DNA of 64,000 bases. Source: a virus (taxonomy: Duplodnaviria; Heunggongvirae; Uroviricota; Caudoviricetes). The position numbers are program-made. Where the stretch lies: IMG/VR virus record IMGVR_UViG_2654588054_000003; one strand, given 5' to 3'. Positions 48,001-51,000 of this stretch are shown piece by piece (the stretch's first letter is position 1; the number at the start of each line of letters is the position of its first letter).

Positions 48001-51000
48001 ATGGGGGTTGCAAAAGTCACCACTGACTTGAAAATTAACGACAATCTTAATCATGGTGCCGGTAGTTTTTCTGAAAGTAACAGCACCAAAAAAACGTCTA
48101 TTGCATGGTCTGTCGGCGCGCAATTTAACTTCAATGAAAGTGTTACTATGGACGTCACTTATGAAAGCTCAGGCTCTGGCGACTGGAAAACTGATGGTTT
48201 ATTTGCAGGCATTGGCCTGAAATTCTGAGTAATACCCGACAACATGTCATAACCCGCTGTGATGGCGGGTTTTTTGTTGCCCGTGCAGGGCAAAAATCGT
48301 AGATTATGCGCGGGTGCCTTTCGGCTGATGGCTGGAGGGAGAACCTGAAGGCCTGATGTGGAAAGGCCCCGAGTCAAACATTTTGTTTAACCCGAGGCCC
48401 TAACCATCATACCTTAAGCAAGTAGAAGGTTAGCGCCTCTCCACTCAGGAGGCAAGCGCTATGTCGCAAAAATCGCTCATCACCGTCACAATTTGTATGA
48501 CGGTAATCTTCACCATCTGGATGTTACACGGCTCGTTGTGTGAGTTCCGGCTGAATTTGTGGGGAGCGGAGTTTGCGGCGTTCTTACAGTGTAAGCAGTA
48601 GGAAAACCGCGACGGGGACGAAAGTCCCCGTCAACTGGTTGCTGAGGTTCAGCCGATATGGCACCCGTTTCTGGTGAGAGAATGGACGACAAAATTCTCC
48701 GGTATATGCAGCGTGTTGTGAGAAATTCCCGCAACCCTGAATTTATGAATGAAGTTAAAGACGCCTGCCTTAAAAAGCAGGCGTTTTGCTTTGAGGCACC
48801 GGATGGTTTTCTGGTGCTGCGTTCTGTGCTCAGTGACGACGGTATCCCTTATGTTCTGGTGTTGCTGGGTGTGTGTACGGGGAGTGCCGGTGTTGAGCGT
48901 TATCTGCCGGAGGTGAAGACATTAACCAGTCTGGCTGGCGGACGCTGGGCTGAATTCCACACGGCAAGGCGGGGATTTATCCGGCTGGGAAAACGTCTGG
49001 GCTTTGAGCGAATGCCGGATGATGAGGATGGCTTCATGGTGTTCAGGATAGCGGTCTGACTGCCACTGTATTCATCATCGTGTGTAAACCAACATTGCAC
49101 TTCACATTCTGACCCTGCCCCGGCAGGGTTTTTTGTTATCTGAGGAGCCATAATGGGCGGAAAAAAAGGCGGTGGTGATACCAAAGTAAAACCAACAGCA
49201 GCGCAAATAGCACAGGAAGAGGTGGCCTGGAAAGGGTGGCAGGATTACAAAAATATTCTCCGTCCGGCAGAAGATAACTTCATGGAAAAGGTCGATGACC
49301 TTAACAGTGAGCAGCAGTACGACAATATCGCCGGTACAACAAATCTGGGATATCAGAAACAGTTTGGTGAAACGCGAAGGGAGCTTGCGGGTAATCTTGC
49401 TCAGTCCGGCGTTGACCCATCCAGTGGTCGTTTTAATGCGGTAATGGATGCAAATCAAAGCGACCAGGTGACCGGGCAGATTGACACGACCACACGGGGG
49501 CAGGTATCGCAGGCAGATAAATATATTGCCGGGCTACAGGATGTTGCGGCTCTCGGTTCCGGTCAGAAGGCCGATGCGTTACAGAGTTTTAACTCTCTGG
49601 CAGACAGCAGTCTGGCAAAAGCCAAATCAGATGCACAGGCGGCGTTTACAAAACAACAGGGGCGGGCCTCTCTTGTTGGCGCTGGTCTGGGGGCGGTTGG
49701 GGCTTATGCAATGCATAAGGCTGGCGGTAGCGGAAGTGGAGGTTCTAAAACGCCAGACACCGGCGCTAACGCTATTCAGAGTCAGGCTCAGAACTGGAGA
49801 CTGTAATTATGGAGTATGGCAAATACGAAACTCTCGCAAGGGCTGGTTATTCAGGAGCAGACCGCCCACAGGGTGACTGGCAGACGTCAGCAGCGCTGAC
49901 ACGCCAACAATACGACGACTGGCGAACCAGATATTTGCCCCGCGTGGCAAGGCTGGCTGACCTTGGTGAGAACAACAGCCTGATGAATGCACAGCTTGCC
50001 CGGGTGGGCGGCCTTGCCACTTCCAGTCTCCGTACAGCGCAGATGGCACAGGATAACCAGATGGCGAGATACGGGGTAAATCGTCCGGATAATCCCAACA
50101 GTAACACACTGGGTTTGCGTAATGCTCTGGCAATTGCTGGCGCGAAAAATGGTATCCGTGAAGCAGAGCAGGATCGCCAGATGAACATACTGACGGGGGC
50201 TTCTGCACCTGCAAGACAACAACTGAGTGTTGGCGGTCAAATGATGACAGCGTAAGGGGGAAGATATGGGGTACGGCTTACTGGATATTGCGAATCAGTC
50301 ACGGCGTGAGGCATTACAGGGAATAAGTGACGCAGACCGACGACGTGAAGAAATTGAGGCTGCGAACAAACAGATGGCGGCGCAACAGAAAGCGCAGAAC
50401 AAGCAGAATATCGGTACGGGCATTGGTACGGGGGCGGCTATTGGCGCATCCGTTGGTGGTCCTGTTGGCGCTGTTGCTGGTGCAGTAATTGGCGGCATTG
50501 CTGGTTCTTTGTTTTAAGGAGTGGTGAATGAGCGGATTTGCACAGGGGTTACTTGCCGGATTCAGCACTGTTGACCAGGCAATGACCCGTCGTAAGGAGC
50601 TTGGTTTGCGAGAAGCACAGCTTGCTCAGCAACAGAAAAATAACGAGCGCGATTTTGAATTTGCGCAGTCTCAGTTTGAACATAATAAAGACGTTGATCA
50701 GCGGAACTTTGATTACAGAGCCAAAGTTGATGACCGCAATTACGCACTGCAGGAAAGGGAGTTTAACGCCAACCAGAATTACCGGAATGCGTCGCTGGGG
50801 ATGGAACAGCAACGACTCCAGTTGCAGAAATACAACCAGCGACGGCTTGAGTATAACGATATGCTGGCACGTGATCAGTCGGTGATGGTGGCGCTGGGAA
50901 AAGCGATTGATGCAGGTGACCATGATGCGGCCTCTCGTCTGTTCGGCAAATTATCGGATGCCAACCCCATTAAAATAATATCAACGGAAGGCTATGCTGC

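Follow-up and report, generated by a model that had tools for sequence, protein, structure and literature searches.

A hok-type toxin gene downstream of lom in a Stx2 phage: relation to hokW-sokW and predicted RNA architecture

The hok/sok system (parB) of plasmid R1 combines a small membrane toxin, a stable fold-back mRNA with tac/fbi pairing, and a short cis-antisense RNA directed at the leader hairpin. Here, we analyzed a hok-type locus located downstream of the lom gene in a 64,000-nucleotide stretch of viral DNA (the window; IMG/VR record IMGVR_UViG_2654588054_000003), which corresponds to a Stx2 phage, as seen from the genes at 23664-24904 (plus strand), which encode an A subunit of the RIP family and a Shiga-like toxin B subunit. 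The locus resembles R1 hok/sok in encoding a small membrane toxin, in the predicted pairing of the mRNA 5' and 3' ends, in the alternative fold predicted for an mRNA lacking its 3' end, and in a predicted cis-antisense RNA to the leader hairpin. However, R1 hok/sok is plasmid borne and uses a mok frame for translational coupling, whereas the locus downstream of lom is a phage moron with no mok frame.

The described hok-type locus of the phages 933W and Sp5 is hokW-mokW-sokW, annotated in the 933W record at 58460-58734, near attR (Plunkett 1999), and characterized, with a HokW of 51 amino acids (aa), by Takada et al. (2021; PMC8621323). According to that paper, sokW is made and antitoxic, and hokW-sokW aids lysis and phage release after treatment with mitomycin C, a role in prophage maintenance not being shown; a second locus is not mentioned in the passages covered by our search. 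The locus downstream of lom shares with hokW-mokW-sokW a collinear mRNA layout, identical hexamers and spacing in the candidate antisense promoter, and the same predicted antisense architecture of a 5' tail and a long hairpin. It differs in its position on the plus strand after lom, whereas hokW lies on the minus strand near attR, and in the mok frame, which is present only in hokW. The predicted antisense 5' tail also differs from that of sokW, and for this reason cross-regulation between the two loci seems unlikely.

At the protein level, 14 Hok/Gef genes were counted in O157:H7 Sakai (Fozo et al. 2010), and a peptide identical to that encoded downstream of lom is listed as 72_1589 in Table S2, "All experimentally tested Hok sequences," of Escalera-Maurer et al. 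(bioRxiv 10.1101/2025.08.07.668861), where it belongs to cluster 72, a "high abundance" cluster at 60% identity. In that study, 42 of the 45 tested Hok homologues were toxic, and 72_1589 is not among the three nontoxic ones, which are named. By that account, this exact peptide, which had been cloned for the assay, was toxic on overexpression. The authors deliberately left Mok, Sok, and mRNA structure unanalyzed and gave no locus-level description in Stx phages.

Identity of the toxin gene and its relation to hokW

The initial annotation of this stretch had described a 46-codon open reading frame (ORF) downstream of lom as a Hok/Gef-like type I toxin gene, and the coordinates, the ATG start, and the 46-aa peptide (MSQKSLITVTICMTVIFTIWMLHGSLCEFRLNLWGAEFAAFLQCKQ) were all reproduced (Table 1). 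The ORF lies between lom (47491-48228; Pfam Ail_Lom, 102 bits), which is followed by a terminator hairpin at 48251-48271 with a T-run after it, and the next annotated ORF, which starts at 48658. The proposed moron location downstream of lom thus holds, as does the proposed noncoding gap of about 380 bp, provided that it is counted from the lom terminator; counted from the lom stop codon, it is 429 bp.

A Hok/Gef profile search, proposed as a check along with the initial annotation, gave a match to Pfam HOK_GEF (PF01848) of 33.2 bits (gathering cutoff of 22; E value of 4e-08), with residues 8 to 44 aligned to positions 6 to 42 of the 42 profile positions, and a match over the full length to PHROG 251, "MokW-like host killing" (E value of 2.8e-24). 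The N-terminal transmembrane helix and the SLCE...AAFL motif noticed earlier were also recovered, residues 6 to 22 being hydrophobic and the motif being common to HokA-like sequences. HokA of Escherichia coli K-12 (NF007290) is the best-scoring named Hok subfamily and has in common with the peptide the C-terminal motif SLCE...AAFL(A/Q)CK; the lom-adjacent peptide is four residues shorter than HokA. That the gene might be a HokA orthologue was rejected, as the NCBIfam NF007290 model scored 38.4 bits versus an equivalog cutoff of 89, indicating a separate subfamily.

Among 5.8 billion proteins searched, there were 56 homologues, and every one that carries a name in its source is a Hok/Gef family protein. 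These homologues form a subfamily of constant length (46 aa) found in E. coli, Shigella, and Salmonella, and also in E. albertii and Citrobacter. Residues M1, Q3, K4, M21, C27, A39, and F41 to K45 are invariant among the homologues, and S25-L26-C27-E28 and C44 show little or no variation across 27 of them. The ORF is 46 aa long in 44 of 45 unique relatives of the locus, the remaining one having 47 aa. Relative to the 933W copy, there are 7 synonymous and 0 nonsynonymous differences, and the dN/dS ratio against divergent alleles, whose peptides are approximately 76% identical, is about 0.2. In the ORF comparison, dS falls to 0.13 in codons 31 to 46 versus 0.88 elsewhere; the low synonymous divergence of this segment fits an additional constraint from RNA structure. 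Judged by these sequence comparisons, the ORF is not a chance ORF, its peptide is under purifying selection, and it is a genuine Hok-family membrane toxin gene. The type I toxin identity given to it initially is supported alike by the protein-family tests, by public annotation, and by the published toxicity of the identical peptide. No match to the peptide or to the neighboring protein was found with PADLOC, leaving a catalogued defense system without support.

This toxin gene is already known and already annotated in databases, so that the earlier observation is correct but not new. It had been called unlisted, which is true of the six-frame track and of some deposited phage records (933W and LC6454xx) but not of RefSeq, in which the PGAP annotation names the ORF product WP_000078907.1 a "Hok/Gef family protein"; one phage RefSeq record names it "MokW-like host killing." The cassette that contains the gene was matched in 1,551 of 5,426 complete E. 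coli genomes, and the cassette region is 100% identical to that of many Stx2a-converting phages.

The lom-adjacent locus being hokW-sokW itself was excluded, since in the 933W record hokW lies at 58460-58615 and the ORF at 45660-45800. The 933W gap downstream of lom (45428-45856) is unannotated, yet it holds the identical 46-aa ORF. The window likewise holds both loci, with a match of 114 bits to the Rfam sok/hok leader model RF01794 at 60421-60595 on the minus strand, approximately 12 kb from the lom-adjacent cassette. The lom-adjacent peptide and HokW (46 versus 51 aa) are 37% identical over 35 aa.

The hokW locus of the window (60250-60600, minus strand) has a 76-nucleotide (nt) internal deletion relative to 933W. 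Its Mok-Hok frame comprises the Mok leader and the Hok transmembrane helix up to ...KKDLC, followed by KGGIPRHL and a stop codon, and the C-terminal half of HokW is gone. The sokW promoter and hairpin are intact, and as read from the sequence, an orphan sokW antitoxin RNA may remain in this phage.

Stx2 phages of the 933W/Sp5 type therefore carry two hok-type loci, not one, and neither the 933W reference record nor many of the deposited Stx2a phage records list the second. In Sp5, deletion of hokW-sokW had a twofold effect on phage yield, and the lom-adjacent paralogue was still in place when these phenotypes were determined. In the window, where hokW is truncated, the lom-adjacent cassette holds the only intact Hok gene found. 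What the analysis adds to a known toxin gene is, then, a second locus apart from hokW-sokW, its omission from reference records, the truncation of hokW, and an RNA architecture predicted to be of the complete hok/sok type except for mok.

Predicted RNAs of the cassette

To define the boundaries of the locus, 53 unique copies from different contexts were aligned. The homology extends from the -35 hexamer of the candidate mRNA promoter to the motif GGCACCC, ending exactly at 48667, with unrelated sequences on both sides. Together with the features collected in Table 1, it is very probable that a discrete, self-contained hok/sok-type type I toxin-antitoxin cassette occupies approximately 48277-48667, as a paralogue of hokW-sokW carried by a Stx2a phage in the form of a moron between lom and the following gene of the late region.

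Table 1. Coordinates of the toxin gene and of candidate or predicted RNA features in the lom-adjacent cassette
Feature	Position	Strand	Details
hok-family toxin ORF	48461-48601	+	One transmembrane helix, then SLCE...AAFLQC motif; RefSeq WP_000078907.1
Candidate promoter of hok-like mRNA	48277-48305	+	-35 TTGCCC 48277-48282, 17-nt spacer, -10 TAGATT 48300-48305
Predicted full-length hok-like mRNA, ~356 nt	48312-48667	+	5' GGGUGCC, 3' GGCACCC; Rfam leader-model start 48312
tac-like 5' element, GGGUGCCUUUCGGCUGA	48312-48328	+	Predicted to pair with 3' fbi-like element or locally with 48358-48370; inverted repeats I5, I11, I12
Target hairpin (sokT-like), loop CCUUAAGCA	48394-48439	+	Inverted repeat I2; predicted fold of 3'-truncated RNA
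Shine-Dalgarno sequence of hok, AGGAGG	48447-48452	+	8 nt before ATG; predicted largely sequestered by CUCC at 48437-48441
3' stem-loop of mRNA, CGACGGGGAC-GAAA-GUCCCCGUCA	48610-48633	+	Inverted repeat I9
fbi-like 3' element, UCAGCCGAUAUGGCACCC	48649-48667	+	Complementary to mRNA 5' end; inverted repeats I11, I12; overlaps annotated start of next ORF
Candidate promoter of Sok-like antisense RNA	48427-48455	-	-35 TTGCCT 48455->48450, 17-nt spacer, -10 TAACCT 48432->48427
Predicted Sok-like antisense RNA, ~60 nt	48361-48420	-	~19-nt variable single-stranded 5' tail, 18-bp hairpin, UUUCC

The candidate mRNA promoter lies directly 3' of the lom terminator, and its -10 hexamer reads TAGATT, TAAATT, TACATT, or TAGAAT among the copies; this promoter call and that of the antisense RNA both rest on conservation and on homology to sokW. 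The Rfam model RF01794 was matched over its full length (positions 1 to 157) at 48312-48472 on the plus strand, with 42.1 bits and an E value of 8.7e-08. This match is on the hok-sense strand, so that the model in effect describes the mRNA leader, and the leader is collinear with that of hokW. Hairpins upstream of the ORF had been put forward as a possible Mok/Sok-type regulatory region, and the RF01794 match, the folds, and the pair counts described below identify them as the hok-mRNA leader and the Sok region.

In the minimum free energy fold of the predicted mRNA, the 5' end (48312-48328) is paired with the 3' end (48649-48667), giving a closed form with a z-score of -7.9 (the inverted repeat begins at 48311). 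When the last approximately 35 nt are removed, the 5' end pairs instead with 48358-48370 to form a tac hairpin, and the target hairpin forms at 48394-48439. Folding models thus indicate two states of the mRNA, one in which its two ends are paired with each other and one, in the absence of the 3' end, in which it refolds into a 5' hairpin and the target hairpin. A fold-back mRNA, whose absence had been named among the grounds for rejecting a hok-type system, is both predicted and conserved at this locus.

Conservation of the structures was evaluated in an alignment of the 45 relatives, with slid alignments as controls. Both conformations had 92% paired cells, compared with approximately 40% in the slid controls. 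As for individual helices, the two 5'/3' helices of the closed form (helices 1 and 2) were paired in 98% and 89%, the tac helix of the truncated form in 99%, the target-hairpin helix in 88.5%, and the 3' stem-loop helix in 99.8%. Two pairs of the 3' stem-loop are compensatory (AU in 25 and GC in 20 relatives; AU in 20, CG in 18, and GC in 5), two pairs of the target-hairpin helix are changed on both sides across the relatives, and compensatory changes are also found in the long-range helix between the target region and 48635-48648.

When read on the minus strand, the segment 48610-48633 forms a stem-loop followed by CGGTTTTCCT, which a terminator scanner flags as resembling a terminator. Antisense transcription arriving from downstream could be halted there, or the resemblance could be a coincidence.

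On the opposite strand, the hexamers and spacing of the candidate antisense promoter (TTGCCT-17-TAACCT) are identical to those upstream of sokW in the window, and the 5' end of sokW annotated in 933W lies 7 nt after TAACCT. Of 28 unique antisense regions, 27 have the same -10 hexamer and only a degenerate copy (L062) departs from it, and the -35 hexamer occurs as TTGCCT, TTGACT, TTGCTC, or TTGTCT. The predicted antisense RNA folds with -30.3 kcal/mol (z-score of -6.2), versus -16.0 kcal/mol for the same segment of the plus strand. The plus strand folds more weakly since it has C·A mismatches in place of three G·U pairs, and this asymmetry marks the minus strand as the structured one. The hairpin is kept in the consensus fold of 17 alleles, and the 5' tail varies among alleles, as would be expected for allele-specific recognition. 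Compared with what defines a Sok RNA, the candidate has hexamers that match those of sokW and a conserved, strand-specific hairpin, together with a weak match to the promoter consensus and a short U-tail.

Absence of a mok frame and rival explanations

No ATG, GTG, or TTG codon is present between 48400 and 48460, and a TAG codon at 48431-48433 closes the hok frame upstream. Among the 45 relatives, an in-frame stop lies 18 to 30 nt upstream of the hok ATG in 44 and 54 nt upstream in the degenerate copy L062; no in-frame upstream start was found in any of them, nor was a conserved mok frame, either in-frame or out-of-frame. Twenty-six lack any upstream ORF overlapping hok, and in the other relatives such ORFs are sporadic, out of frame, and inconsistent in their starts. 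In hokW, the mok ATG (60483) is located in the target-hairpin loop and is in frame with hok; the loop of the lom-adjacent locus occupies this canonical place, and the start codon is absent there.

These observations bear directly on a canonical hok/mok/sok arrangement, in which a mok-type frame would begin at a noncanonical start codon in the target loop (e.g., AUC or AUA at 48406-48411) and would be blocked by Sok. In its favor are the collinearity with hokW, in which the equivalent loop contains the mok ATG, and a predicted antisense 5' tail that spans exactly the target-loop region. However, besides the lack of common start codons and the in-frame stops described above, reading from the AUC or AUA codons leads to UAA within 3 to 4 codons, the distance from AGGUUAG to the hok AUG falls 8 nt short of that in hokW, so that the frame is shifted, and the loop sequence varies among alleles. 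We therefore regard a hidden mok frame as very unlikely.

A literature search for mok-less hok loci yielded no paper describing them; this search was not exhaustive and is no proof of novelty. The mok-less architecture is the only point of the locus that is possibly new. A more novel reading, which as a whole we put forward tentatively as plausible but somewhat short of probable, is that the 46-aa Hok subfamily (cluster 72) is a naturally mok-less variant of hok/sok in which a Sok-like RNA would control hok without translational coupling, by duplex-triggered decay and/or by a hairpin switch that hides the hok Shine-Dalgarno sequence. In Stx2a phages with a deletion in hokW, the cassette would then provide the sole working Hok toxin found in the window and might influence lysis timing, phage yield, or prophage retention.

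As to the mechanism, an antisense RNA of about 60 nt would be made constitutively from TTGCCT-17-TAACCT, and its variable 5' tail would pair with the target-hairpin loop of the processed mRNA. Given that there is no mok frame, repression could not operate by blocking mok translation. It would more likely involve cleavage and decay of the RNA duplex, and/or sequestration of the hok Shine-Dalgarno sequence by the 3' half of the target hairpin (48425-48439) once this is freed. If the antisense RNA were lost, translation of the stable mRNA pool would follow, with damage to the inner membrane by the peptide; possible triggers are prophage induction, loss of the element, or a block of transcription. 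The cassette may thereby serve phage release, prophage retention, or abortive infection. Post-segregational killing, by which it had initially been suggested to stabilize the prophage, is thus a hypothetical role, and the only functional data, those on the paralogous hokW-sokW, point to assistance in lysis and phage release upon induction. The predicted accessibility of the Shine-Dalgarno sequence in the window was 0.02 in the full-length mRNA, 0.14 in the truncated form, and 0.03 when the target was blocked, and in 45 of 45 sequences it was higher in the truncated form than in the other two; such a switch is also seen in the local folds. An antisense-driven switch that sequesters the Shine-Dalgarno sequence is a weak inference from these folding models. 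The mok-less design, if true, would be a compact natural example of a paradigm system without its coupling frame, of moderate interest to specialists in RNA regulation, and would leave the overall picture of type I toxin-antitoxin systems unchanged.

Several points weigh against a hok/sok-type cassette with the mechanism described above. The Shine-Dalgarno switch is small, with unpaired probabilities of about 0.02, 0.1, and 0.02, and the 45 sequences are related, so that their full agreement is not independent support. The sense and antisense RNAs are predictions from sequence, folds, and conservation; searches of Takada 2021, Mondal 2016, Faridani 2006, Fozo 2010, and the Pas sRNA preprint gave neither transcript evidence for a second locus nor mention of it. 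A consensus promoter scan flagged neither candidate promoter, the sense one having 8 of 12 consensus matches, and the antisense hairpin is followed only by UUUCC, which is weak as a terminator tail. No covariation signal comes from the tac/fbi core, as it hardly varies. With regard to the family models, the hok/sok check with Rfam that had been suggested gave a full-length leader match, but its score remained below the gathering score of 59, and the matches to the NCBIfam HokA and "Hok family toxin" models were far under their cutoffs. Finally, the toxicity assay comes from a preprint and relied on expression from an arabinose-inducible promoter with a heterologous Shine-Dalgarno sequence (bioRxiv 10.1101/2025.08.07.668861).

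Some of these points would also suit a real toxin without a functional antisense RNA, controlled by the fold-back mRNA and by Q-antiterminated read-through from lom, with Hok acting as a late lysis helper. The poor consensus match of the antisense promoter and its short terminator tail agree with this, as do the co-orientation of the cassette with stx2AB and the late genes and the finding of Takada et al. that the paralogous HokW aids lysis after induction. Nevertheless, the -10 hexamer TAACCT is invariant and the -35 hexamer and spacing are kept across alleles that are approximately 27% different elsewhere, the same hexamers precede sokW at its annotated 5' end, and sokW was shown by the same authors to be made and antitoxic. 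Moreover, owing to its G·U pairs, the hairpin of the antisense strand is much the stronger one, and the cassette also ends P2-like prophages, which have no late read-through of the lambdoid kind. Ranked just behind a hidden mok frame, control without an antisense RNA is likewise very improbable. That the gene is a decaying, nonfunctional hok remnant, like several hok loci of K-12, is scarcely credible: although the Rfam and NCBIfam scores lie under the curated thresholds, mok is absent, and a few copies (L027 and L062) are clearly degenerate, the 46-aa ORF is intact in 44 of 45 unique relatives, with the dN/dS ratio and the substitutions relative to 933W given above, the RNA structure is conserved with compensatory changes, and the identical peptide is toxic according to the published assay.

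Mobility of the cassette and neighboring features

Closely related alleles of the cassette follow lom in Stx-type phages, and divergent alleles lie at the end of P2-like prophages, after gpD and Ogr. The cassette is thus a mobile moron and is not tied to lom. In five contigs (L006, L055, L059, L069, and L084, at about 2550-3210), divergent alleles were observed directly 3' of an Ogr/Delta zinc-finger gene and gpD, with chromosomal genes (ihfA and pheT-like) beyond these prophage ends. By comparison of these sequences, the cassette has moved between unrelated phage lineages. Two copies are degenerate with an intact ORF: in L027, the promoter and the 5' part of the mRNA are gone, and in L062, the 5' end is mutated (GGACACC) and the antisense -10 hexamer is altered (TAAGCT). 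This indicates that some copies of the cassette are decaying. In addition, three contigs labeled Xanthomonas pisi, Planococcaceae MAG, and Vagococcus sp. (L004, L005, and L007) carry this enterobacterial hok at 76 to 100% peptide identity, most likely due to assembly contamination by E. coli or Salmonella DNA.

Immediately downstream of the toxin gene, the ORF at 48658-49059 on the plus strand belongs to phrog_610, of unassigned function, and its annotated ATG (48658) falls inside the fbi-like element. The PHROG profile aligns to this ORF only from residue 9, and an ATG at 48682, just outside the cassette boundary at 48667, is preceded by a GGTGAGAG Shine-Dalgarno sequence. From these sequence features, 48682 is more likely to be the true start of the ORF than 48658.

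Elsewhere in the window, other Rfam matches above the gathering score were the C4 antisense RNA with its a1/b1 targets and isrK (19932-20129), STnc100 and AsxR just 3' of stx2B (24979-25238), and the lambda cIII thermoregulator (8407-8465), together with three tRNAs at 23.3 to 23.6 kb and sRNA-Xcc1 at 63217-63305.

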